The notes below the pieces were generated by a model. That model worked only from the letters and a program-made list of their open reading frames with translations, ran no database searches and had not been told where the DNA came from. From sequence record FJ373894: DNA of 64,000 nt. One strand, written 5' to 3'. This document shows, piece by piece, positions 8,829 to 64,000 of the stretch. The DNA is from Shigella phage Ag3. Within the stretch, counting starts at the first letter, position 1; every line of letters begins with the position of its first letter. Both the position numbers and the translations under genes were made by a program.

Positions 8829-9533
8829 CTATTTCTTCTTATGCATCCGACGCGCATCTTTCCAAACAGACATCTGACTCTGTTTCTGGAAGCGAGCGGT
8901 GCGCATGAAGAGGACGATCTCCCAGTACTGTGGCTCGATCTCATAGAGCTGAGTTCGGAAGCGGTCGGCGCGGTACAATTTCACACAGTGATTGTACAGC
9001 GGGTGGTTGGCGAACCGCTTCAGAGCATCCCAAGTGAGCTTCAGTCGCGTCTTTGAGCGGTACGCCCGTTCGTTGCGCAACTTGATGAGATCTTCGAACA
9101 CTAACAGCCTGAGCTTCGGTGGCAGGTAATGCATGTTCAGTCCCCAGAGGTATGTCACGCCCTTCTCTCCAAAGGTGATCCCATCACCCTGAGCGAAGTT
9201 GAAGAAGAACACCAGAGGATACATATCCCAGTACGGCAGTTCGTCCTTCGTCAGAGCGTCGTATTTGAAATAGAACATGCGCCCGACCATATACCGCACA
9301 CCCTGTACGGGGCGCTTGTGATCAGCGAACGCCTGTTTCATATGGTTGGGAGTCAGGTTGGCGTCCTTAGACACACGCTCCATGAACCACACATGCGAAC
9401 GGCGGATGTTGCGCTTCGCCTCTGGACCGAAGTGTTGGCGGTACTTTCGGATGTATCGCTTGACGAGTTCAGGGGCGTCCATCTCGGCCGGAAACAGCAA
9501 CGGATCTTCTTCGCCAGCTGCATTCTTTGCCAT
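8829..9533 (-). CDS. hypothetical protein
   Basis: 234-aa basic protein; ATG at 9531-9533. Confidence 0.5.
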   Translation of the reverse strand: MAKNAAGEEDPLLFPAEMDAPELVKRYIRKYRQHFGPEAKRNIRRSHVWFMERVSKDANLTPNHMKQAFADHKRPVQGVRYMVGRMFYFKYDALTKDELPYWDMYPLVFFFNFAQGDGITFGEKGVTYLWGLNMHYLPPKLRLLVFEDLIKLRNERAYRSKTRLKLTWDALKRFANHPLYNHCVKLYRADRFRTQLYEIEPQYWEIVLFMRTARFQKQSQMSVWKDARRMHKKK

Positions 9534-9544
9534 TTGTCAACTCC

Positions 9545-9552
9545 TATAAATA
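9545..9552 (+). promoter_or_regulatory. T4-type late promoter box TATAAATA
   Basis: exact TATAAATA about 35 nt upstream of the 9587 GTG start, with GGAG RBS. Confidence 0.5.
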
Positions 9553-9586
9553 ACAACAGTTATCTTATTTAAGTGGAGTCCTCACC

Positions 9587-22683: not shown

Positions 22684-22722
22684 AGCGATCCTCGGTTTGT
22701 GTTATAAGCAGGTTTTATTATA

Positions 22723-22749
22723 CGCCGCCCTCGTAGATTGAAGGCGGCG
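22723..22749 (-). terminator. intergenic stem-loop between phoH and nrdA
   Basis: CGCCGCC / GGCGGCG 7-bp GC stem with 13-nt loop. Confidence 0.4.
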
Positions 22750-24441: not shown

Positions 24442-25254
24442 TTAACTGAAACTCTTGTATGCAGCAGCGAGCTTCGTGTCGTACTGGTTCTTGGCATACG
24501 CCGGACCATTATAGCGCCGCGCAAACTCAGCCCAGTTCTTGTCCTTCAGAGCCTGCCAGAGCTTGACGTCGGCCTTGATGAACTTCACGAATGCCATCAG
24601 ATGAGCACGTTCGCCTGTCAGGAAGTCATTGAACATCTCCTTGGCGTTGGCGTACCCACAGACCTGGCAGTTGAAGCCCATGATCTGGAAGAGGCCGTAT
24701 GAAGCGCTCTCGTACGCACAATCCTCATCGATGTTGATGGCTGCGTGAAGTCGATCCAACTCCGCGTCGCCGCCCGTGTACCCGCCTGCCACTGGACTGA
24801 CAAGGGTTGGATACATCTGACCAGCAGCATTCGCCCGAGCCTGCCCGAACTTCGCCATCATCTTCTTGTACATGATGTGACGCTCAAACAACGTCTTGAT
24901 CTTACCAGACTTGGTGAAGCCAGTGCCACGGGATTCAACCTGATTGACTGCCTTCACAGAGGCGAGGTCAACTCCCAGCTGGTTGGCTGCGTCGATAAGG
25001 TCAGCCTCAGTCAGGTGATCCTGATGAGAGTCTCCGGCGTTGCGAATAGCATAGGAGGTCTTTGGACCCACAATACCATCAATGACAAGCCCCGCACCCG
25101 CCTGAACAGTCTTGACAGCGTTCTCTGTTGCCTTACCAAAGATGCCGTCAGCGACGAGGGTGAAGCCGATTTTGTTGAGGCTCTGCTGAAGTGATTTGAC
25201 TTCAGAGCCGCGTGTGCCAAGTTTTAGAATGGCCATAAGAAAATACCTCCGCAA
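24442..25254 (-). CDS. endolysin (peptidoglycan-binding domain plus muramidase-like catalytic domain)
   Basis: 270 aa; N-terminal PG_binding_1-like repeat (GSEVKSLQQSLNKIGF...DGIFG), C-terminal YGLFQIMGFN-type catalytic region. Confidence 0.7.
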   Translation of the reverse strand: MRRYFLMAILKLGTRGSEVKSLQQSLNKIGFTLVADGIFGKATENAVKTVQAGAGLVIDGIVGPKTSYAIRNAGDSHQDHLTEADLIDAANQLGVDLASVKAVNQVESRGTGFTKSGKIKTLFERHIMYKKMMAKFGQARANAAGQMYPTLVSPVAGGYTGGDAELDRLHAAINIDEDCAYESASYGLFQIMGFNCQVCGYANAKEMFNDFLTGERAHLMAFVKFIKADVKLWQALKDKNWAEFARRYNGPAYAKNQYDTKLAAAYKSFS

Positions 25255-25305
25255 TGAATGCGAAGGTATTTAAAGTGAAAGTGAACTACTTGAGGAACTG
25301 CCGTG

Positions 25306-28812: not shown

Positions 28813-28862
28813 GATTTGTTTCCTCAGAAAAAGAAATCCCCCTGTATTTAGGGGGATTGTAA

Positions 28863-29681: not shown

Positions 29682-29738
29682 CTTGAATCTCCTCGGGGAT
29701 TTCAGTTATTTATAAGCCCCCGAAGGGGCTTTAGATGA

Positions 29739-31658
29739 TCAGATTTTAATCTGCATGTTGCCGCCCAGGGACTGCTCATACTCACTGTATGCGCTCTCCC
29801 CGTCGTCTTTCGCCCACTGGTCAGACTGCTGGGCGCGAGCCAGAGTCATCAGGTTTGGTTCAGTCGGGTTGTAACCCTTGGATTTCGCATCCTGGTACAG
29901 AGTCTGCAGGTACTGGTTGGCGCGGTCAATCTGAGCTTTGAACTCGCGATATGCACCTTCAGTTGTATTGCGGCGGAAGGTGATATCCCAGTCCACGTTC
30001 AGAGTCTGACCATCACGGCTTGCATAGATCTGCCAATCCAGGTCGCGACCTTTTGGAGCGTTGTCGCGGATGGAACCAGCGTATGTTGCAAGGTCAACAC
30101 CAGTCTTCTTAGCAGTATCCGGTTCTTTATCCAGGCGTTCTGTTTCTTTGGACAGGATACCCAACATAAATTCATTGGTGCGGCGATCCGCCATGTCGTG
30201 CCCGCGCCAAAGGACTGAACCGTTGTTGTCAACAAAAATGTCGTCCAAAAATACTTGTTTCGGATTATGTGACGTGCTGTTCAGAGTTTGCATATTCCGA
30301 GATATCATTTCCATTTTAGAAGAAATTTCATCGATCACGGCCTGAACAATATCTTTCTTCAAAGGAAGTTCATATGTCTTCGGATTGTTCAACAGTCGCC
30401 CTTTCTGAGAGATCATCGGCGTGAACGCGACTTTTCCTTTGTCGTAGTAATAGGTCACATTCGTGGTCAATACAGCACCATCATACTTCCCAGTTTTCGG
30501 GAAATTGACACCAGACCAAGTGATGGACATACCGTTGACAGTCTCACCAAACACCATGGCGTTGCGCGGCATCTTCAGGGTTCCAGAGTTGACCAGATCA
30601 GCGCCCTGGGCATTCAGGTCGATAGAACCATAGATGGTCCCGCTACGATCTTTCAGCATCAGGGTCTTGTCGCCCTTCTCTGGGATGATTTCCAGCAGGT
30701 GCTTGCCGCGCAGAGGCTCTTTGTTGAGTTCCAACAGAGCAGTGTTCCCTGGTTTCACACGATTCAGGACAGCGTCGGTCACTTTCAGAGTCCAGTTTGC
30801 GGTCTCAACATAACCCCAACCCTGAGAATGGCGAATACCCTTGATAGGGTAAGGGGCGCTCATCGGCACTGCGCTAATTTCCCATTCGCCGCGATACTGA
30901 TGTTCGGCCACGTATGTGATCGTTTCCATGATTTCGTTTGCCACCCGACGAGCATCGCCAGAGATGACACCAGGCTGAGTTTCGATTTCAGAGAACACGT
31001 TGTAGGTCAGATTCTTGCCATCGACTGAATCGAAGCTGACGATGATCACCAGACCACCTTTAGTTTGATAACGCGCCTGTCCGATCTTCTTAATGCTTTC
31101 CCCTGGGAGATAGCTTGCTTTCTGGTCAATGTTGGTATCAATGATACCCAGAACACGAGCGATGAAACCGCTGTCACGCAATTGATCGATACTGGTTGCC
31201 CCGATTGTGGTGTTGGAGTCAGCTGGCGCGGACTTCTGCTGAGAACCTTTCCAAAATTTTGTGGACGCCGTGGTGAAATCATTCAGGATACTGATAGGGA
31301 CTTGCGGTAATTTCAACTGACGAGCAATGAAATCAGCACTTTGCCCACGCACAGATTTCTCATTCATGTATGCGCCAACATACACGCCTGGCTCATTGTA
31401 GTGGGGAGCGATATTTGCCGTGTTCATGCGGCCTCTCTCCTTACCAACCCATATCAACATGGGTTGATCCCCGTTTGAAGTTAATTTCCATCCGTTGGAA
31501 TCATCAACAGAAGATGAAGCCCCCACATCTGGGGTATTGTCCTGAACCGGAACGTCGCCGACCTTGTCCGGGTCATCCCATGTGATGCCCTGCATCTTCG
31601 GACCGTCGAATACCTGAGCAGGATCTTTACCCTTGCGAACCAGCCATACATAAACCAC
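29739..31658 (-). CDS. large hypothetical protein
   Basis: 639-aa ORF (GTG at 31658; true start may be the downstream ATG near 31595); no recognised catalytic motif. Confidence 0.5.
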   Translation of the reverse strand: MVYVWLVRKGKDPAQVFDGPKMQGITWDDPDKVGDVPVQDNTPDVGASSSVDDSNGWKLTSNGDQPMLIWVGKERGRMNTANIAPHYNEPGVYVGAYMNEKSVRGQSADFIARQLKLPQVPISILNDFTTASTKFWKGSQQKSAPADSNTTIGATSIDQLRDSGFIARVLGIIDTNIDQKASYLPGESIKKIGQARYQTKGGLVIIVSFDSVDGKNLTYNVFSEIETQPGVISGDARRVANEIMETITYVAEHQYRGEWEISAVPMSAPYPIKGIRHSQGWGYVETANWTLKVTDAVLNRVKPGNTALLELNKEPLRGKHLLEIIPEKGDKTLMLKDRSGTIYGSIDLNAQGADLVNSGTLKMPRNAMVFGETVNGMSITWSGVNFPKTGKYDGAVLTTNVTYYYDKGKVAFTPMISQKGRLLNNPKTYELPLKKDIVQAVIDEISSKMEMISRNMQTLNSTSHNPKQVFLDDIFVDNNGSVLWRGHDMADRRTNEFMLGILSKETERLDKEPDTAKKTGVDLATYAGSIRDNAPKGRDLDWQIYASRDGQTLNVDWDITFRRNTTEGAYREFKAQIDRANQYLQTLYQDAKSKGYNPTEPNLMTLARAQQSDQWAKDDGESAYSEYEQSLGGNMQIKI

Positions 31659-32118
31659 GGTCAGGGACAGGCGCGTAGGTCAGGTCCATGACGTTCAGCT
31701 TCTGCTTCAGGCCGGACTGGCGGATGATCTTAGGAATCAGGGTCATCCCGCGTTCCAGCGCTTTCTTAGAGAAGTTGACAGCATAACCATCGATGGTCTT
31801 GCCCAGAGGGGTCGCCAGGAACTGCTTGGTCGCTTCGATCATGGAAGCAATGACGCGCATTGGGTTCTTGAAGCGAGCGATAGCATCAGGATAGACGGAG
31901 CCGCGCTTCTGGCCGATGAAGACCTGACGAACGTTCTTGCCCAGCCCCTGAGGGGTATAGAACTGAATGCGGTATTCCTTTTCATCTTCGTCGATGAAGG
32001 TGAAGAACACATCGCCTGCGTTCTTCTTGCCCATGGTCAGCTCATACGGAGCGGAGTTGAACGCTTCGTCCAACTGATCCTTTTCCTGCATGAACTGAAG
32101 GAAATTTGGCTTTGACAT
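31627..32118 (-). CDS. hypothetical protein
   Basis: ORF 31627..32169, start at ATG 32116-32118 with AGGAG RBS. Confidence 0.45.
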   Translation of the reverse strand: MSKPNFLQFMQEKDQLDEAFNSAPYELTMGKKNAGDVFFTFIDEDEKEYRIQFYTPQGLGKNVRQVFIGQKRGSVYPDAIARFKNPMRVIASMIEATKQFLATPLGKTIDGYAVNFSKKALERGMTLIPKIIRQSGLKQKLNVMDLTYAPVPDRGLCMAGSQG

Positions 32119-32193
32119 TTTGTATCTCCTGATGGAATTATGGCGGTTTCTTCTAATTAGCGAAACCAAAAGAGAGCCGAAGCTCCCCTTATC

Positions 32194-34187: not shown

Positions 34188-34286
34188 GATGGCGTTCCTT
34201 ATGTGGATTGTCGACTTGCAGCTCGCTTGAGCCTCCTGACAGGGGTTAAAAGATAAAGGGCACGTGGTATTTAGTGCCCTTTGGCC

Positions 34287-37376: not shown

Positions 37377-38492
37377 TTATGCGTCCAGTTTGTTCAGGCG
37401 TTGTTGGGCAGCATTGTAGAAGTGCTCTGCCAGTTTACAGACGTTGTCAGGGCGCTGGATGTTGTTCCCGGCGCGGATATCCTTCTTCAGGACTTCCACT
37501 GCATCGGTCGCCACCATCTCTTCAGTGACCTCAACCTTCTCAGCCGCCACGGTGATAGTCCGGTCGATGAAGTTGTAGTCAATGCACTTGCAGCGCTTCA
37601 TGGCATCACAGAACTTTTCATAATGCTTAGCATTGTCGCGGTTCTGTACGATTACCTTAACGATCTGTCCTTCAATACCCAAGCCTGTGTTCAGCCATTC
37701 CGGGTCGATCCAGTTACCCTCATCGTCTGAGGACAACTTGGTGTAGTCATACTCCACATAGCGGAACAACGTCTGGTGCTCACTGTTGGGGATGAATACC
37801 TCTCCGCCGCGCATGTCGTCCACATAGAAGCCACGGTTGGTGCCGTCTTTGTAGTCTTCCCAGTTCAGGTGATACGGAGTCCCAATATATTGAATGTTAC
37901 CTTCCATCGAACGGGTATGGAAATGTCCCGTGTCGACCCTGGTAAACTTGGAAAGCAGAGCAACGTCGATCTGACCGTGATCACAAGTAGAAGACTGGTA
38001 CATTTTGAACCCTGCCAGCTCCAGATGCGCAAAACAGTACTCGGCGTCTGTATCTTGTATCGCTTTAATAGACGCATCATAGTTCTCCTTGTTGATCCAA
38101 GGCAGCAGCAGAGTCTTGACACCCTCGATCAACACTTCGGTCGGTTCGCTGTAGTAGCAGTACACATCTGGGTCGAGTTCGTTCAGGTAGGATGGCCAGT
38201 TGATGCGGTTGGTCTCTTCCAGGGTGATGTCGTGGTTGCCAACAATGCCATTCCACTTGATGCCAGCCGCTTTCAGCGCTGGAGTTAATTCATCCTTCAG
38301 CCAGTCTTTGTCGCGCCCGTACATGAATTTTCGGACGTCAAACGTGTCACCCAATTGCCAGACCTCATGGATGTCCGAGTCGACAAGCTCGGGGATGAAA
38401 TAGTTGATGAGGTAGTTCTTGATGAAGTCGCGAACGTAACGGGAACCATTACGGCTCCCGATATGCAGATCGCCTATTTTAGCAATCGCCAT
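37377..38492 (-). CDS. 47: recombination endonuclease subunit gp47 (SbcD/Mre11-like nuclease)
   Basis: 371 aa; calcineurin-like phosphoesterase motifs GDLH, GNHD. Confidence 0.9.
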   Translation of the reverse strand: MAIAKIGDLHIGSRNGSRYVRDFIKNYLINYFIPELVDSDIHEVWQLGDTFDVRKFMYGRDKDWLKDELTPALKAAGIKWNGIVGNHDITLEETNRINWPSYLNELDPDVYCYYSEPTEVLIEGVKTLLLPWINKENYDASIKAIQDTDAEYCFAHLELAGFKMYQSSTCDHGQIDVALLSKFTRVDTGHFHTRSMEGNIQYIGTPYHLNWEDYKDGTNRGFYVDDMRGGEVFIPNSEHQTLFRYVEYDYTKLSSDDEGNWIDPEWLNTGLGIEGQIVKVIVQNRDNAKHYEKFCDAMKRCKCIDYNFIDRTITVAAEKVEVTEEMVATDAVEVLKKDIRAGNNIQRPDNVCKLAEHFYNAAQQRLNKLDA

Positions 38493-39270
38493 TATTCTTT
38501 TTCTCCCGTTCTTCTAATCTTTGTTTGAGGGCTTCCCAATCTGGTTCCATCGCACAGATATCATCTTCCAGATTGAATTGGGTTTTGCCGAAGTCCTGAT
38601 CTGAATTGTCTTCGGCCTGCGCTGTTACCGTATTCTTAGCCTGCGCCATGTATTGAAGTATGCCTTTCGCAATCTTTTTATTCGATTCTGCGAGACGAGC
38701 CGCCTCCACCTTCTCTCGCTCCTTCTGCCTTTGAGCGTCCTTTTTGTTCTCAAAGTTGCCGATACGTTCACGGAAGTCCATGCCAATCCCTGTCGCATCA
38801 ACAAAGATCTCTTGTTGGAAGTCAGGGTCGTCTGCCAGGCCTGCGAACCCACCCGCCTCTTCAAATGAGCGCAATTTGATGTACGTATGTTCTTCTTCGA
38901 TATTCAGTTTACGAGCAAATGAGCGATCTGCACACATGGTCACCCAAGAGAAGAAGTTGATCTTCCCTTTCTTTCCAATGTGGTCGACGTCAAAGGTGTG
39001 GAGGTAACGCAGGATGTTGACGATTGCTTCAGAGACCATGTCTTCACGGAAGGGATAGTCGCGATAGTTGTAGCGGGTGCTCATCTTGGTGATGATGCGC
39101 TGGACCTGTAGAGCAACATAGTTGGGGATCTTTGGAAGCCTGGTGCCTTCAGCCAGAGCCTTCTTACGAGCAGGGATCCAATCACGAAGGATACTGATGA
39201 CACGCTCGTTATCTTCGTCCGTGAAATATTTGACGACATTCTCGCCACGATCAACATAATTCATACCCAT
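38479..39270 (-). CDS. 55: late-transcription sigma factor (T4 gp55-like)
   Basis: 263 aa; block similarity to T4 gp55 and position immediately after genes 46-47 as in T4; T4-type late promoter boxes found elsewhere in window. Confidence 0.5.
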   Translation of the reverse strand: MGMNYVDRGENVVKYFTDEDNERVISILRDWIPARKKALAEGTRLPKIPNYVALQVQRIITKMSTRYNYRDYPFREDMVSEAIVNILRYLHTFDVDHIGKKGKINFFSWVTMCADRSFARKLNIEEEHTYIKLRSFEEAGGFAGLADDPDFQQEIFVDATGIGMDFRERIGNFENKKDAQRQKEREKVEAARLAESNKKIAKGILQYMAQAKNTVTAQAEDNSDQDFGKTQFNLEDDICAMEPDWEALKQRLEEREKKNNGDC

Positions 39271-39281
39271 TGTGGGAACCC

Positions 39282-39809
39282 TCAGATACCGATAAATTCA
39301 TCAAAAGATCCAACAACCTTCTTCACTGAGATCTTGTCATTCTCAATCAGGAAGTTGCTGTCGTTTTTGGCTGCTGTGGCCCAGTCATCGGCAAGTTCGT
39401 TACCTTCGTGCCCCGCATGACCCTTAACCCATTTTAGTTCAACTTCACAAATTGAACAAACGAGATCATAGATTCTGAACAGATCTTTGATGAGTTCAAC
39501 GTTCTTGTCTGGGAAACCCTGATACTCCCACTTCGCTCGCCATTCGGTGACGCTCTTGATGGTGTATTGACTGTCAGACCAAATTGTTGCCTTTGGTATT
39601 CTGCGCTCACCCTTTCCTGAGAATGCCCACAGCAGCTTCAATGCGTTGGTCACACCCAACAACTCGGCGATGTTGTTGGTGGACGGGGGAGGTAGGTGAC
39701 CGAAGAACACCTTCCATTGCATACCCGATATTGGCCTGATGACAAATGCCCATCCTGCGGCCTGGTTGGTCTTCGGGTTAGAACCCCCGTCAGAATAAAT
39801 TTCTATCAT
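39282..39809 (-). CDS. rnhA: ribonuclease HI
   Basis: ORF 39282..39905, start at ATG 39807-39809 (MIEIYSDGGS); RNase H DEDD motifs (YSDGG, NNIAEL, DSQY, GHAGHEGNELAD). Confidence 0.8.
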   Translation of the reverse strand: MIEIYSDGGSNPKTNQAAGWAFVIRPISGMQWKVFFGHLPPPSTNNIAELLGVTNALKLLWAFSGKGERRIPKATIWSDSQYTIKSVTEWRAKWEYQGFPDKNVELIKDLFRIYDLVCSICEVELKWVKGHAGHEGNELADDWATAAKNDSNFLIENDKISVKKVVGSFDEFIGI

Positions 39810-39811
39810 GA

Positions 39812-39819
39812 TATAAATA
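39812..39819 (+). promoter_or_regulatory. T4-type late promoter box TATAAATA
   Basis: exact TATAAATA about 35 nt upstream of ATG 39855. Confidence 0.5.
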
Positions 39820-39854
39820 TCCCAAACTGGTTTTATAGAAAGAGGAATGAAACT

Positions 39855-40622
39855 ATGGCACCCCGCGCATATCGTTTCAGTCTCACCGCCCCGCAGATTG
39901 AGCAATTGCTCCTTTCTATCAATGATGCTATCAAGTCAGAAGATATCATCTATGATTATGCTGCAGGTGGGACTGTTGGGCAAGTCGCAGCAGCGTCTGC
40001 CGTCAAGAACATGTGGTTGAAGCTCAACGAGATGGTAACAGGCCAAGGCCTCAAAGATGCCATCAACGCTGCAGAAGACAGCAACGTGTTCACTGACTAT
40101 TATAAGTCTTTACTGGATCGCGAAGGCTGGAAATTTATTGGGTCTCCGGCAGATGAACTTGAGCGAGGCGACATCGACACCGCGAACTTCACGGGTGGTG
40201 AGGTCATTCTACTTCAGAAGAACGCTTCAGGCAACCCCGAATTCCAATACTGGAAGCGAACCCCGGTTGCTGGGGGTGATCCTACCTTTGCATGGGCTTC
40301 GGTCTATGAAGGGAACTCCAATGACTCTTCCATTGAGATCCCTGTGGTTGGCACCAGCGTACTCAAGGACATCCCCAAGGCGCTCTTCCATATGATCGAG
40401 TTCAGAGTGCATGTCTACGATGAGACACTGGGTCATTGGCAGGACACCGACGGAAAAGTAGGGTATCGTGGCGAGGATCTGTTCTACAGCGTCTACAACC
40501 ATGTTCAGACCAAACCTCTCGCCACCATTGACTTCAGTCAAGACACAGATAGCATGACAGTCTCTGTTACTTCCCTGGAGCCGAATGTCAAATGCCATCT
40601 GTCGTTTATCGCTGGTTACTAA
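39855..40622 (+). CDS. late-expressed protein (putative virion component)
   Basis: ORF 39696..40622, start at ATG 39855 (MAPRAYRF) with AGAGGAA RBS and TATAAATA box about 35 nt upstream. Confidence 0.5.
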   Translation: MAPRAYRFSLTAPQIEQLLLSINDAIKSEDIIYDYAAGGTVGQVAAASAVKNMWLKLNEMVTGQGLKDAINAAEDSNVFTDYYKSLLDREGWKFIGSPADELERGDIDTANFTGGEVILLQKNASGNPEFQYWKRTPVAGGDPTFAWASVYEGNSNDSSIEIPVVGTSVLKDIPKALFHMIEFRVHVYDETLGHWQDTDGKVGYRGEDLFYSVYNHVQTKPLATIDFSQDTDSMTVSVTSLEPNVKCHLSFIAGY

Positions 40623-51360: not shown

Positions 51361-53004
51361 TCAGATTTGTGAGGCCAGTTCCGCCACCAGAGGAGCGGCG
51401 CGGACACGCGCATCTTCCAGAGTTTGAGTGTTGAAGAACTTGCCGTCACGATACACCAGCTGGTGCTGGTTGTCGGCGTCTTGTACCTGATCAAAGGTGA
51501 TACCGTCAACCAACACTAGTTTACCCTGAGAGTCTTTAATGACTTTAAGGAAACCACGCGCAGACTTTTTAGTCCCGCCTTTATCGGTCTTCGGCTCTTT
51601 GAAGATCTCACGGAATTCACCGTTCACCTTACCAGCCGTTGCTTTCACCGCCGTGCCAGTACTGTCACGGGTGTTCATCTGGTAGGTGTAGGAACCGATA
51701 CCGAACACCACGTTGATGGAAGCGAAGTTCCGGCCAGCCAGACGGCTAAAGATCTGGTCTTCACGCGCCAGGGTGATGGAGTCGCCGTAAATCAGACCGA
51801 TGTGTTCGTCCAACAGGAAGTGGCCAGTTTCGGTCTGGGTCCCGCCAAAGATCTCCCACAGGCGCTGGATAGAGCCGACTGCTTCAGAACGGCTGATGAT
51901 ATTACGGTCGTCTGCCATCAGAGAGTTGATCGTGCCTTCGCCTGTAATCAGGTGATAGGTGTTCGTCTCTTCGATGTGAATGACTTCGGTGCTGCTAGAC
52001 ACGCCGCTGATGTTCAGCGTGGCGCGGTCTTTGAACCCCTCAATTCGGTAGCCGCCGACGATATGAACTGGGTCGCCCGAGTCAGGGCGGATCACGACTT
52101 TACCGTTACGCGCCATGATAATATCTTTCAGGCGCGGCAGATAGTCGTCGATGACCTGCCAGTAATCCCACGCATCAGACACGATGCTGACGATGCCATC
52201 AGGATACACGTCCTGCACCAGGCGGCGGAAGGTTTCGAATTCGCCATCCTTCGTACCCATACACATCACGGCGTGTTCGGTAGCCGCAACAGAACCAGCA
52301 ACGACATAGTCTTCGTCGATGTCTGCGCCATAATACTCTTCAACGAACGTGCGCCCACCGTCGCAGATATCATCGACCACCACCAGATAACGGTCTTTGA
52401 TCAGTTCAGGGTTTGTAATGCTCACCCCAATGATCTCACCAGTCTTGGTGTCACGGTTCTTGTGTCCGTAGACAACAGGAACGCCATCCAATGACAGGCT
52501 GAGGGCTTCGGTCTTCTTCGCCGCGCCGCCGTCAGGAGCTACCAGCACAGCGTTGTTCCCACGGATGAACCAGCCCAGATACTGCCGCACGATGTAATCT
52601 TGCGGGACAACATGGACGTTGTTGATCAGAGAAGTCACAACATGGCTGTGAGGGTCTTTGATCGCCACACGGTCAAAGTTCATGCTATTGATGAACTCAG
52701 CCGCCCACTTCACGGACAGAGGCTCTCCGAAGTCGCAATGGCGGTCCTGGCGAGCATACGGGAAGTAAGGGATATACGCATGGAAGGTCGTCAGACGGTC
52801 CACGTTACCCAGGCCGCGCACGGCGTTAACCAGCAGTGCCAGCTCAACGAAGTCGGCTGATGATTTGATGTGGGCATCAATCACCACGTTCTGGACGTGG
52901 CCGACAGGGATACCAGCCTTTTGGATCTTGATATGTTCCTCACCACCTGGGAAGGTGAAGTGTTTGTAGAACACATCTTGGTCGTTCAATTTCAAACGAA
53001 ACAT
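51361..53004 (-). CDS. fusion protein: ribose-phosphate pyrophosphokinase-like N-terminus joined to nicotinamide phosphoribosyltransferase-like C-terminus
   Basis: 547 aa; residues ~1-225 carry Prs motifs (FPGGE, PYFPYARQDR, VLVAPDGGAAKK, VVVDDICDGGRT); residues ~226-547 match the NAMPT C-terminal half (YYG..VAATEHA, VSIVSDAWDYW, RPDSGDP). Confidence 0.75.
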   Translation of the reverse strand: MFRLKLNDQDVFYKHFTFPGGEEHIKIQKAGIPVGHVQNVVIDAHIKSSADFVELALLVNAVRGLGNVDRLTTFHAYIPYFPYARQDRHCDFGEPLSVKWAAEFINSMNFDRVAIKDPHSHVVTSLINNVHVVPQDYIVRQYLGWFIRGNNAVLVAPDGGAAKKTEALSLSLDGVPVVYGHKNRDTKTGEIIGVSITNPELIKDRYLVVVDDICDGGRTFVEEYYGADIDEDYVVAGSVAATEHAVMCMGTKDGEFETFRRLVQDVYPDGIVSIVSDAWDYWQVIDDYLPRLKDIIMARNGKVVIRPDSGDPVHIVGGYRIEGFKDRATLNISGVSSSTEVIHIEETNTYHLITGEGTINSLMADDRNIISRSEAVGSIQRLWEIFGGTQTETGHFLLDEHIGLIYGDSITLAREDQIFSRLAGRNFASINVVFGIGSYTYQMNTRDSTGTAVKATAGKVNGEFREIFKEPKTDKGGTKKSARGFLKVIKDSQGKLVLVDGITFDQVQDADNQHQLVYRDGKFFNTQTLEDARVRAAPLVAELASQI

Positions 53005-56786: not shown

Positions 56787-56901
56787 GATGTAGTCTTCCT
56801 GTTTCAGTTCAAATGTGCGCCCCGTTTGCCAGGGCGCTTCGTTTAAGTGAGGTCAATAATACGTTGAAAAAAGTTATTGAAGAATGAAGTAAAGGGAATC
56901 T

Positions 56902-61039: not shown

Positions 61040-61069
61040 CACACATTATAGCATCAGGCTGGAGATTGA

Positions 61070-61738
61070 TTACTCAATCTGTGCGCCGACGAAGTAATTG
61101 ATCGTCGCGTCGGATGATTGGAAGTTCACCATCTGCAGCTCAGCGCAGGCACGCAGAGTGTAGTTACCTTCGATCATCTTCAGGTTAGCAACGTCCAGTG
61201 GCATGACGAAGTCCGGCAGCGCAGTTTCACCCAGCTCAACGGTGTAGTTGTTGGAGTTGTCCAGGGTAGTGGTGGTTGCAACCAGGCGAGTTTTGCCACC
61301 CTGAGCAACCAGGCGCACAGTCTTGTGACCGAGGGTAGAACAGGCGCGGGTCAGTTCTTTCATCTTCTCTGGAGTGATGATCGCTTCAAAGTCGACAGAC
61401 GGCAGTTCAATGGTGTCAGCCGGAACAACAGTGAGTTCTTTAGCAGAACGCCAGAATTGCAGCTGAGAGCTTTCGCCTTTCAACAGGATGTAGTCCTGAT
61501 GGAATTCGGCTTTACCGCCTTTGAAGGAAGGCAGGCGCTGGATGGCCAGAAGTTTGGTCAGGTCCAGGATAGGGAACTCAAACGGGAAGTCTTCTTCGAT
61601 CTGTGCCACGGCGATAACAGTAGACGAATCGTTAATGCTGCGCAGCATCTTACCCGGTGTCAGAACGATAGATGGGTTGATGGTCTCAAAGTTGGCCAGC
61701 AACTGGAGTGTACGTTCGGAGAGAGTGATCTCTTGCAT
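61070..61738 (-). CDS. 45: sliding clamp (T4 gp45 homolog)
   Basis: 222 aa; N-terminal LQLLANFETINPSIVL matches gp45 LLKNFATINSGIML. Confidence 0.85.
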   Translation of the reverse strand: MQEITLSERTLQLLANFETINPSIVLTPGKMLRSINDSSTVIAVAQIEEDFPFEFPILDLTKLLAIQRLPSFKGGKAEFHQDYILLKGESSQLQFWRSAKELTVVPADTIELPSVDFEAIITPEKMKELTRACSTLGHKTVRLVAQGGKTRLVATTTTLDNSNNYTVELGETALPDFVMPLDVANLKMIEGNYTLRACAELQMVNFQSSDATINYFVGAQIE

Positions 61739-63955: not shown

Positions 63956-64000
63956 ACAAAATCTCCCAAGATATATGGGGTATTTAGCGATCCGGCCAGA

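Follow-up and report, generated by a model that had tools for sequence, protein, structure and literature searches.

Probable late promoters with a TAAATA core in a Shigella phage of the Ackermannviridae

Ten boxes of the TAAATA type, three of them with the exact sequence TATAAATA, were found in the window, the whole stretch of 64,000 nucleotides of Shigella phage Ag3 (record FJ373894) that was analysed here. The TATAAATA boxes are real, and very probably they are promoters of late genes which the phage reads with a T4-like sigma factor of its own. Their spelling is a minority form of a family motif of which the core is TAAATA and the usual form CTAAATAcc. The phage is an Agtrevirus (Ackermannviridae, ViI-like) and the window is 98% identical to Shigella phage ChubbyThor. 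Since the family motif was already known from close relatives, the finding of the boxes is correct and ordinary. The evidence consists of the sequence, position, strand bias and conservation of the boxes, the presence of three late-transcription proteins, and predicted hairpins.

Boxes and the genes they precede

The boxes lie on both strands, and 8 of the 10 are followed by their start codon at 25–38 nt. They are listed here with one weak candidate variant.

9545–9552, plus strand: TATAAATA box, 34 nt before GTG 9587, gp54-like baseplate tail-tube initiator
9566–9573, minus strand: CTTAAATA box, 32 nt before ATG 9533, gp2 DNA end protector
13345–13352, minus strand: CGTAAATA box, 38 nt before ATG 13306, RuvC-like Holliday junction resolvase
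14365–14372, plus strand: TATAATTA, weak candidate variant box, 28 nt before ATG 14401, gp26-like baseplate hub
15676–15683, plus strand: CATAAATA box, 34 nt before ATG 15718, gp5 baseplate hub / tail lysozyme
25267–25274, minus strand: TTTAAATA box, 30 nt before ATG 25236, endolysin
28845–28852, minus strand: CCTAAATA box, 32 nt before ATG 28812, DUF5856 protein
29707–29714, minus strand: TATAAATA box, 25 nt before ATG 29681, 189-aa protein (PHROG 4048) without assigned function
34268–34275, minus strand: ACTAAATA box, 80 nt before ATG 34187, 204-aa protein
39812–39819, plus strand: TATAAATA box, 35 nt before ATG 39855, 255-aa protein (PHROG 3833) without assigned function
63981–63988, minus strand: GCTAAATA(cccc) box, 25 nt before ATG 63955, UvsW helicase

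The initial annotation had placed exact TATAAATA copies about 35 nt before the genes at 9587 and 39855; both are present, at 34 and 35 nt as counted from the end of the box to the start codon, but the third copy, on the minus strand at 29707, had been missed. Its CATAAATA variant before the gp5 gene is confirmed, and the genes at 14401 and 62079 do lack an exact box, the former having the one-mismatch TATAATTA upstream. The description of the boxes as preceding plus-strand genes is true for those at 9587, 15718 and 39855 and is too narrow: six of the ten belong to minus-strand genes (gp2, the RuvC-like resolvase, endolysin, DUF5856, the 189-aa protein and UvsW), which sit inside the supposed early region, and a further box precedes the 34187 gene.

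The boxes at 9545 and 9566 are divergent partners within a 53-nt intergenic region. ATG 25236 is more likely than TTG 25254 to be the true endolysin start. The 39812 box is intergenic if RNase H starts at ATG 39809, and the Pfam domain begins at residue 35 of the long ORF. The product of the 34187 gene is RegB-like according to the ChubbyThor annotation, and ChubbyThor has a UvsW box at the same site as that at 63981. Whether TATAATTA at 14365 is a box at all is uncertain because the TAATTA class, to which it belongs, is without significant enrichment.

Taking ChubbyThor and the window together, the boxed genes include gp6, gp48, gp4, gp2, gp54, gp5, scaffold, sheath, gp14, tail fibre, tail spike and endolysin, a set that fits a late programme. 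The UvsW and junction resolvase genes also carry boxes; uvsW is expressed late in T4. The same holds for T4 gene 49 (PMC3014915). To call the genes at 39855, 29681 and 28812 "late" would be circular, none of the three having an assigned function. Some obvious late genes, such as major capsid, portal and gp25, have variant boxes only, or none.

Counts and position

The initial annotation had proposed a count of the octamer and a test of its position, and the two came out differently. The count is weakly above chance, with 3 copies in the window against 0.59 expected and at least 3 in 3 of 100 shuffles; octamers with one mismatch are not in excess (18 observed, 17.5 expected). The search pattern used in the AG3 paper, TATAAATA with one mismatch, was rejected on the latter figures as mixing noise with real sites, and was replaced by an unbiased ranking of hexamers upstream of starts. 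By position the exact octamer is enriched: all three copies stand 25–35 nt upstream of a co-oriented start, inside a zone of 20–45 nt which makes up 1.8% of strand-positions (binomial p = 5.7e-6). The four exact copies in the ChubbyThor genome (159 kb) likewise all fall in this zone, provided that the short start of the 39855 orthologue is used.

In the ChubbyThor genome TAAATA is the top-enriched hexamer between -70 and -16 upstream of starts (21 of 47 copies, 14-fold, p = 1.9e-19), and among hexamers made up of A and T only it has the highest upstream fraction, 0.45 against 0.08 pooled. The upstream copies are mostly in the sense orientation (21 versus 4 antisense), as are those in the spacers of tandem genes (16 versus 3, p = 0.002). 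Intergenic copies in ChubbyThor number 26, compared with 9.4 ± 3.0 after shuffling, and 26 was reached in 0 of 2000 trials. Its coding DNA holds 20 copies versus 70 expected from base composition, a shortfall to which codon usage and the TAA stop codon contained in the motif must contribute. Within the window 9 of 15 TAAATA copies are located 20–45 nt upstream of a co-oriented start (p = 8e-13). The intergenic excess is modest when taken on the window only: 9 copies against the approximately 4.4 which composition alone would give in its non-coding DNA (58% A+T), with 9 being reached in 59 of 2000 shuffles.

We asked whether TAAGTA and TAATTA could serve as weaker boxes for the capsid, portal, tail-tube and gp26 genes. 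Five of 15 TAAGTA copies are upstream of genes (p = 1e-4) versus 2 of 24 for TAATTA, which is not significant. This is suggestive of TAAGTA, and not TAATTA, as a weaker box; the portal and tail-tube genes of ChubbyThor are preceded by the TAATTA variant.

The motif

In 28 candidate sites TAAATA is invariant and the preferred form is (A/C)CTAAATAcc. Position -12 is C in 14 of the 28 sites and the T4-like A in 5, and the four positions which follow the hexamer are C in 13, 17, 11 and 12 sites, respectively, so that a typical box with its tail reads TAAATAcccc or TAAATAcctt. The window contributes CTAAATAcag (28845), CTAAATAcca (34268) and CTAAATAcccc (63981), and CTAAATA is found upstream of genes at about 13 sites in ChubbyThor. 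Compared with the family motif CTAAATAcCcc, TATAAATA and CATAAATA have only the TAAATA core in common.

Conservation among relatives

The boxes persist at orthologous sites in six genera amid diverging flanks, and at a given site TATAAATA, CTAAATA, TAATTA and TAAGTA interchange. The 9545 box is kept in 20 IMG/VR relatives, with a variable 13-nt spacer to the divergent 9566 box; Serratia phage 3M has TATAAATA at this position, and Vibrio phage 1.244.A has CTAAATA. At the 9566 site TTAAATA is found in all relatives, the Vibrio relative having CTAAGTA, and at the 13345 site CTAAATAccc occurs in the Kuttervirus-like and Klebsiella-phage relatives. The 15676 site is CATAAATA in 20 of 20 Ackermannviridae relatives, with flanks that vary between genera, and the 25267 box is invariant in 16. 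Relatives have TATAAATA, CTAAATA or CTAATTA at the 29707 site, apart from the Serratia phage, which has no box there. At 39812 the Agtrevirus-, Limestonevirus-, Klebsiella-, Erwinia- and Serratia-phage relatives carry TATAAATA and the Kuttervirus-like ones TATAAGTA.

Late-transcription proteins

Three proteins with counterparts in the late transcription apparatus of T4 are encoded in the window:

38479–39270, minus strand: gp55 homologue, late sigma factor, 263 aa (PHROG 234 "late sigma transcription factor", E 6.8e-52)
11935–12180, minus strand: gp33 homologue, late-transcription co-activator, 81 aa (Pfam PF16805, E 1.2e-18; PHROG 254, E 3e-21)
61070–61738, minus strand: gp45 homologue, sliding clamp, 222 aa (PHROG 223, E 1.8e-64)

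The first of these had been recognized as gp55-like in the initial annotation, and rightly so. Direct comparison with T4 gp55 failed, pairwise BLASTP giving no similarity (E = 95) and phmmer against PDB only spurious FtsZ matches, and a family profile was therefore needed. The profile of 12 members has T4 gp55 (7d7c_F) as its best PDB match (E 3.1e-7), and hhalign of the homologue to T4 gp55 gave a probability of 88% (E 3.3e-6). The best PDB matches of the gp33 homologue are to T4 gp33 (3tbi_A and 7d7d_K; E 0.015–0.02), while for the gp45 homologue the Pfam gp45-slide_C match is below the cut-off (E 0.0017).

Seven residues of T4 gp55 (N13, L54, R57, F86, H95, Y97 and T99) pocket the flipped bases at -12, -9 and -8 (PMC7892883). 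Four of the seven are identical in the window homologue, N13/R57/F86/T99 corresponding to N21/R66/F93/T111, and three are conservatively substituted: L54M (M63), H95F (F107) and Y97W (W109). Two alignment methods and MAFFT agree on these pairings. At the C-terminus MAFFT pairs the clamp-binding motif of T4, SLDFLYEAND, with TQFNLEDDI; the window protein, which is about 80 residues longer than T4 gp55, continues for approximately 27 residues past this segment, and some relatives are without it.

Hairpins at the boxes

Two boxes are located in the 5' arms of strong predicted RNA hairpins:

13307–13351, minus strand: resolvase-leader hairpin with a 14-bp outer stem; the 3' arm ends 1 nt before the ATG and the 5' arm holds the 13345 box
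25241–25271, minus strand: endolysin-leader hairpin with a 13-bp stem, AAAUACCUUCGCA / UGCGGAGGUAUUU; the 5' arm holds the 25267 box and the 3' arm includes the Shine-Dalgarno sequence GGAGG

The resolvase hairpin has a folding energy of -22.9 kcal/mol (z -4.5) and that of the endolysin -18.0 kcal/mol (z -4.1), neither value being equalled in 200 shuffles. An RNAalifold consensus of the resolvase leader collapsed to -0.76 kcal/mol, MAFFT having misplaced a compensated 1-bp indel, and the stem was assessed by folding individual sequences: it measures 13–15 bp in 20 of 20 relatives, among which an A-U pair has once become U-A and a G:C insertion is compensated. Seven distinct relatives retain 13 of 13 pairs of the endolysin stem, the changes being one-sided C-G / U-G switches only. 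Both predicted folds are stable and would hide the ribosome binding site (RBS) or start codon in the manner of T4 e and 49.

Three further boxes are associated with hairpins. That at 28845 lies in the loop of a terminator-like hairpin (28835–28858) and that at 34268 in the loop between the arms AGGGCAC and GTGCCCT of a hairpin with a T-rich run after it; that at 29707 comes directly after a GC-rich hairpin. The conservation of the boxes at 13345, 25267, 28845 and 34268 could accordingly be owed to RNA structure.

Function of the boxes

We consider it quite likely that the boxes are -10-type late promoters, used by host core RNA polymerase together with the gp55-like sigma factor of the phage; if T4 is a guide, gp33 as co-activator and gp45 as sliding clamp probably take part. 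The functional element would be TAAATA, at T4 positions -11 to -6, preceded by (A/C)C and followed by a C-rich stretch, and TATAAATA and CATAAATA would be tolerated minority spellings of it. We infer that gp55 binds to the boxes, and likewise the place and the time of RNA start. Transcription would begin about 6 nt after the final A, near A 9558 in the case of the 9545 box, giving leaders of some 20–30 nt. The T4-style late programme put forward in the initial annotation agrees in silico with the gp55, gp33 and gp45 homologues and the conserved boxes without a -35 element, but TATAAATA is not the consensus of this phage. A literature search found no transcriptome, transcription start or transcript 5'-end study for the Ackermannviridae, nor timing or binding data for this phage or any other member of the family.

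At the endolysin and resolvase genes this model gives the hairpins a role. Earlier read-through RNA would fold, bury the RBS and be untranslatable, and only RNA begun at the late promoter would be translated, as in T4 e and 49; with a start about 6 nt past either box, most of the hairpin's 5' arm would be missing from the RNA.

A more far-reaching proposal, which we advance tentatively and with some doubt, is that the gp55 of the Ackermannviridae follows a grammar unlike that of T4, with TAAATA as its only requirement, a preference for C at -12 and a C-rich discriminator, and that the phage uses this promoter systematically as a structural switch. The Ackermannviridae have partly hypermodified thymidines. 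The altered grammar may be linked to H95F and Y97W in the base pockets, and perhaps to these modified bases. As for the switches, a promoter in hairpin arms would unlock translation of lysin and resolvase, and one in a terminator loop would restart transcription beyond the stop signal.

Four of the ten window boxes (resolvase, endolysin and the two terminator loops) overlap strong predicted hairpins and a fifth abuts one, and from this it might be argued that TAAATA acts in the RNA, as part of arms or loops serving termination, RBS occlusion or processing, its likeness to a T4 late box being incidental. We regard this as unlikely. TAAATA keeps the same spacing to start codons irrespective of structure, terminator loops have no structural need for it, and the boxes at 9545, 9566, 15676, 39812 and 63981 were not seen in hairpins, the scanned region covering the first three. 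If the T4 e/49 mechanism holds, the hairpin cases are moreover expected under the promoter model.

It is decidedly unlikely that the boxes are instead -10 hexamers for host sigma-70, that is, early or constitutive promoters which do not depend on gp55. TATAAATA does contain TATAAA, one mismatch from TATAAT, and host-like promoters are used elsewhere, TTCAAT-N14-TATAAT occurring 20 times versus 3.3 expected; however, that early-type motif is a separate element with a different distribution, and no sigma-70-type -35/-10 pair from the scan coincides with any box. The 28 sites have no conserved -35 element and no conserved base upstream of -13; between -22 and -3, counted from the hexamer, no base exceeds 12 of 28 at any position. 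Furthermore, CTAAATAcc, the most frequent form, makes a poor -10 element for sigma-70, and the boxed genes are mostly concerned with the virion and lysis.

That they are functionless chance strings in A+T-rich intergenic DNA is barely credible in spite of the marginal octamer count, given their specificity of position and strand, the first rank of TAAATA among all hexamers genome-wide, and above all the conservation of orthologous sites across genera despite changing flanks, which nearly refutes it.

Relation to known late promoters

In T4-type late promoters, transcription starts about one helical turn after an 8-bp TATAAATA box. As in T4, where the box spans -13 to -6, the putative promoters described here have a single -10-like A/T box without a -35 element, on either strand and before virion, lysis and late recombination genes, and gp55, gp33 and gp45 are encoded in both phages. 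The differences are that the A at -12 of T4, which is flipped into a deep pocket of gp55, is here mostly C; that the segment directly downstream of the box, A+T-rich in T4 (PMC2988020), is C-rich; and that gp55 carries H95F and Y97W.

In the late consensus of Aeromonas phage Aeh1, a/gC at -13/-12 replaces TA (PMC2988020), and its spelling (A/G)CTAAATA is the same box as (A/C)CTAAATA. Aeh1 is a member of the Straboviridae, and its gp55, which differs from that of T4 at L54F and R57H, keeps H95 and Y97, unlike the window protein. The two phages thus have C at -12 without a common substitution in the -12 pocket to account for it, and Y97W as its cause is unsupported.

Two motifs, CTAAATAcCcc and TTCAAT[N14]TATAAT, are attributed to the family in the EspM4VN paper (PMC7283392). 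Judged by sequence, CTAAATAcCcc, the "Viunalikevirus" / Ackermannviridae motif, is the same motif as the window boxes, and CTAAATA with a C-rich tail is conserved across the family. Table S2 of the 2011 phiSboM-AG3 paper lists ...caactccTATAAATA and ...gctgcgCATAAATA as putative late promoters, the sequence identical to the 9545 box being Porf072 and that identical to the 15676 box Porf084; the 9545-type box was there given to the gp2 gene, which is on the opposite strand. Thirty-three late promoters of LIMEstone1 were assigned by T4 similarity (PMC3296691), while according to the CBA120 paper the sequence recognized for late transcription in the family had yet to be identified (PMC3184105). 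The AG3, LIMEstone1 and EspM4VN accounts employ the T4 octamer with one mismatch, or a motif without positional statistics.

In T4 e, 49, soc and I-TevI, a late promoter inside an RBS-sequestering hairpin gates translation (PMC3014915). The likeness of e and 49 to the two leaders described above extends to the late box in the 5' arm, to a 3' arm with the Shine-Dalgarno sequence or adjoining the start codon, and to the functions controlled, lysin and Holliday-junction resolvase. The resolvase here is RuvC-like and not an endonuclease VII homologue, and the lysin is unrelated in position; gating is predicted here from sequence and folds. Hairpin-embedded boxes are not reported in the earlier family papers, and RBS-hiding hairpins with late boxes at the endolysin and resolvase genes would be an addition to them.

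Implications

The boxes themselves were predicted in 2011 and no new question is opened by them. The late-promoter grammar, with its TAAATA core and CTAAATAcc form, allows more accurate maps of late transcription units for the Ackermannviridae. Phages of this family are widely used in biocontrol and in reporter or engineering work against Salmonella, E. coli O157, Shigella, Klebsiella and Dickeya, and the grammar shows engineers the sites of late payload expression; the endolysin and resolvase hairpins are flagged as putative timing devices, best left undisrupted. Lastly, the phage provides one more diverged gp55 with an altered preference at -12, which helps in comparing how minimal sigma factors read DNA.

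Probable late promoter boxes in the window

The T4-type late promoter octamer TATAAATA occurs exactly at 9545-9552 (+), 39812-39819 (+) and 29707-29714 (-), the third having been missed in the initial annotation, and its variant CATAAATA at 15676-15683 (+). The gaps to the start codon are 34, 35, 25 and 34 nt, respectively, so that exact boxes do stand about 35 nt before the 9587 and 39855 genes and a variant before the gp5 gene, as had been claimed. The raw count of TATAAATA is barely unusual (3 vs. 0.59 expected; at least 3 in 3/100 shuffles) and one-mismatch matches show no excess in the window (18 vs. 17.5 expected). It is the placement of the exact boxes, not their number, which confirms the observation: all three precede a start codon of the same orientation by 20–45 nt, and the zone so defined comprises 1.8% of the strand-positions in the window (p = 5.7e-6).

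The region 9000-17500 matches two phages of the genus Agtrevirus (Ackermannviridae, Aglimvirinae), Shigella phage ChubbyThor at 98.3% over its full length and Salmonella phage SKML-39 at 97.3%. Annotated ChubbyThor proteins, placed by tblastn, provided the gene table of the window, in which the minus strand carries nearly all genes. Those on the plus strand are listed below.

Plus-strand genes of the window (start, strand, product)
9587, +, gp54-like tube initiator
14401, +, gp26-like hub, plus a small ORF
15718, +, gp5
17401, +, gp25
39855, +, 255-aa protein with no known function
62079, +, 125-aa protein with no known function

The hexamer TAAATA, the core of the boxes, is found 15 times on both strands of the window vs. 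31 expected for uniform sequence. Nine copies are in non-coding DNA, which makes up 5.8% of the window; the copy at 39812 joins them as a tenth provided that the RNase H gene begins with ATG 39809, a start which the Pfam domain boundary suggests. Of the 15, nine stand 20–45 nt before a start codon of the same orientation (p = 8e-13). The intergenic excess within the window is modest (9 vs. 4.4 expected; 59/2000 shuffles reach 9), so that it is position, strand and conservation, not count, that carry the case.

Candidate late promoters with a TAAATA core, named by first coordinate (strand, sequence, downstream gene)
9545, +, TATAAATA, gp54
9566, -, CTTAAATA, gp2
13345, -, CGTAAATA, RuvC-like resolvase
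15676, +, CATAAATA, gp5
25267, -, TTTAAATA, endolysin
28845, -, CCTAAATA, DUF5856 gene
29707, -, TATAAATA, 189-aa protein with no known function
34268, -, ACTAAATA, 204-aa gene, 80 nt downstream
39812, +, TATAAATA, 255-aa protein with no known function
63981, -, GCTAAATAcccc, UvsW

The association with plus-strand genes made in the initial annotation holds for boxes 9545, 15676 and 39812, but is not exclusive, six boxes closely preceding minus-strand genes and a seventh, 34268, standing 80 nt before one. The 14401 and 62079 genes indeed lack an exact box. The former has only a variant, TATAATTA, 28 nt upstream, of a type also present before the portal and tail-tube genes of ChubbyThor, in which TAATTA as a class is not enriched; the latter has no box and is preceded by 340 nt that carry elements of host-like promoters.

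Several features of the gene layout deserve mention. The long RNase H ORF (39282-39905, -) starts at TTG 39905 and overlaps both the 39855 gene and its box; since the in-frame ATG 39809 is residue 33 and its Pfam RNase_H domain extends from residue 35, the shorter start is more likely, and would leave a 45-nt divergent spacer. Upstream of gp5, 361 nt (15357-15717) are non-coding, with a bidirectional terminator at 15355-15374, a TATAAT near 15430 and, at the far end, the late box; a 43-aa minus-strand ORF is annotated at the counterpart in ChubbyThor. A 547-aa ORF (51361-53004, -) matches parts of two ChubbyThor proteins, ribose-phosphate pyrophosphokinase (N-terminal 222 residues) and nicotinamide phosphoribosyltransferase (C-terminal 328 residues), which implies a deletion of ca. 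0.9 kb fusing two NAD-salvage genes. Lastly, the counterpart of 29739-32169 (-) in ChubbyThor is a single 683-aa hypothetical protein; a 180-aa ORF (31627-32169, -) shares 96% identity with its N-terminus and a 639-aa ORF (29739-31658, -) does not match the remainder. The pattern suggests a gene that is variable or has been replaced locally.

The TAAATA core element

The ChubbyThor genome was assembled whole (159,319 bp) and the upstream region of each gene with an intergenic gap was inspected, revealing that CTAAATAcc recurs before late genes. In an unbiased ranking of hexamers by how enriched they are at -70..-16 before all 202 starts, TAAATA came first (21/47 genomic copies in this zone, 14-fold, p = 1.9e-19), above TCAATA, TTCAAT and TATAAT, all three of them parts of a distinct, host-like promoter. 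Its upstream fraction (0.45 vs. 0.08 pooled) is by far the highest among the 64 A/T-only hexamers. Upstream of starts 21 copies are sense and 4 antisense, and in spacers between tandem genes 16 and 3 (p = 0.002). Intergenic copies number 26 vs. 9.4 ± 3.0 in composition-matched shuffles, none of 2000 reaching 26. In coding DNA the hexamer is 3.5- to 5-fold rarer than base composition predicts (ChubbyThor, 20 vs. 70; window, 5 vs. 26), a deficit which must be due in part to the TAA stop codon within the motif; the scarcity fits selection against stray late promoters, confounded by this stop and by codon usage.

Alignment of 28 candidate sites, in which TAAATA is invariant by construction, gave C 14, T 6, A 5 and G 3 for the preceding base, mostly A or C before that, four C-rich bases on the 3' side, and no conservation further upstream. 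The phage's own consensus is consequently (A/C)CTAAATAcc(cc). In the whole ChubbyThor genome four sites have the T4 spelling TATAAATA and two have CATAAATA.

Conservation among relatives

Relatives were drawn from IMG/VR for five boxed genes, with two more distant GenBank phages. Both boxes of the divergent gp2/gp54 spacer are kept in 20/20 relatives, with variation in the 13 nt that separate them; LIMEstone1 has TATAAGTA here, Serratia phage 3M (67% protein identity) TATAAATA / TTAAATA and Vibrio phage 1.244.A (34% identity) CTAAATA / CTAAGTA. The gp5 box CATAAATA is invariant, with flanks varying by genus. Before the 39855 gene five lineages have TATAAATA and the Kuttervirus-like group TATAAGTA; before the 29681 gene, at the same site after a hairpin, the box is TATAAATA, CTAAATA or CTAATTA depending on lineage. 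Such swaps at orthologous sites provide direct evidence for TATAAATA and CTAAATA being interchangeable forms of one element.

Homologs of T4 late-transcription proteins

The claim of a gp55-like gene at 38479-39270 (-) is borne out: the ORF matches PHROG 234, "late sigma transcription factor" (E 6.8e-52). Pairwise comparison with T4 gp55 reveals no similarity (BLASTP E 95); a profile of 12 family members has T4 gp55 (PDB 7d7c_F) as its best match in the whole PDB (E 3.1e-7; hhalign probability 88%). In the cryo-EM study of the T4 late complex, gp55 residues N13, L54, R57, F86, H95, Y97 and T99 make up the pockets into which this protein flips the bases at -12, -9 and -8 (PMC7892883). Three concordant alignments place N21, M63, R66, F93, F107, W109 and T111 of the window protein at these positions; as most are kept, the -9/-8 adenines, which are within TAAATA, would face a largely conserved surface. 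The residue stacking on the -12 base changes from Y to W. This change was considered as the cause of the lost A at -12 but is not supported as such, since Aeh1, with a/gC at -13/-12 of its late promoters (PMC2988020), keeps H95 and Y97 and a simple correlation of residue and base thus fails.

Homologs of the co-activator gp33 (11935-12180; PF16805, E 1.2e-18) and the sliding clamp gp45 (61070-61738; PHROG 223, E 1.8e-64) are also present. Together with the boxes, these three proteins lend good in silico support to the T4-style late transcription programme originally suggested. The gp55 homolog has 263 aa in the window vs. 242 in ChubbyThor, the two diverging after residue 236; the window form (3' end 38479-38541, -) overlaps the start of the gp47 gene, and both length classes are found among relatives in the databases.

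Boxes associated with hairpins

In the endolysin leader (25241-25274, -) a 13-bp stem (AAAUACCUUCGCA / UGCGGAGGUAUUU) starts with the box TTTAAATA and holds in its 3' arm the Shine-Dalgarno GGAGG of ATG 25236, probably the true start rather than the TTG 25254 of the ChubbyThor annotation. The predicted hairpin (-18.0 kcal/mol, z -4.1) keeps 13/13 pairs in relatives, where the sole changes, between C-G and U-G, are one-sided. In the leader of the RuvC-like resolvase (13307-13352, -) the box is in the 5' arm of a 14-bp stem which ends 1 nt before ATG 13306 (predicted -22.9 kcal/mol, z -4.5). A 13-15-bp stem is predicted here in every relative; one pair has switched from A-U to U-A, and a G:C insertion is compensated. 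The box is CTAAATAccc in other genera. Most of the 5' arm would be missing from RNA starting about 6 nt past either box. Boxes 28845 and 34268 are in the loops (CTAAATAC / CTAAATACC) of terminator-like hairpins 28835-28858 (-) and 34256-34283 (-), and box 29707 adjoins a hairpin; late RNA from these three would start past the stop signal. The two loop boxes may be a designed restart past a terminator, or a coincidence.

That four boxes overlap hairpins gives some weight to a role at the RNA level. These cases are, however, compatible with promoters, and no hairpin overlap was seen for boxes 9545, 9566, 15676, 39812 and 63981, the first three of which lay in the scanned region. Use by host sigma-70 is unlikely: no -35/-10 pair from a consensus scan coincides with any box, nothing upstream of the boxes is conserved, and this phage has another motif, TTCAAT-N14-TATAAT, as its host-like promoter. 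When up to 2 mismatches are allowed, this motif occurs 20 times in the whole window (3.3 expected; 0/100 shuffles reach 20), 16 on the minus strand, including the following.

Examples of TTCAAT-N14-TATAAT
12834-12859, -
22717-22742, -
56856-56881, -
61045-61070, -

This bias fits early and middle transcription of the minus strand. A perfect sigma-70 consensus (14188-14215, +; TTGACA, 16 nt, TATAAT; 12/12 matches) falls within the gene 13827-14357 of the minus strand and precedes the gp26-like start at 14401 by 186 nt. Chance strings are excluded by the position, strand bias and conservation of the boxes. Judged from sequence, the boxes are very probably late promoters.

Relation to described phages

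The motifs CTAAATAcCcc and TTCAAT[N14]TATAAT reportedly originate from the 2012 "Viunalikevirus" proposal. They are given as the two regulatory motifs of the family Ackermannviridae in the EspM4VN paper (PMC7283392), and 33 late promoters were assigned in LIMEstone1 by T4 similarity (PMC3296691); the CBA120 paper, by contrast, describes the late recognition sequence of the family as not identified (PMC3184105). The 2011 study of phiSboM-AG3, of the same genus, noted gp55, gp33 and gp45 homologs and, allowing one mismatch to TATAAATA, 17 sites, highlighting those before gp2, gp5 and gp6 (PMC3121705). Its Table S2B sequences "tctttgccatttgtcaactcctataaata" and "tataaggcaaaatccgctgcgcataaata" are identical to 9524-9552 and 15655-15683 of the window; the former was attributed to gp2, on the opposite strand, whereas the box points to gp54. 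Two of the three boxes initially flagged were thus published in 2011 as putative late promoters, and the flagged boxes represent less common spellings of a family motif already known. Our literature search found no transcript mapping for Ackermannviridae.

In T4 genes e, 49, soc and I-TevI, the ribosome-binding site is sequestered in early read-through RNA and RNA from the late promoter is translated (PMC3014915). The endolysin leader has the same design as that of gene e and the resolvase leader as that of gene 49, a lysin and a Holliday-junction resolvase again. These putative hairpin-gated promoters appear to be undescribed for the Ackermannviridae, and to be new examples of a known T4 device.
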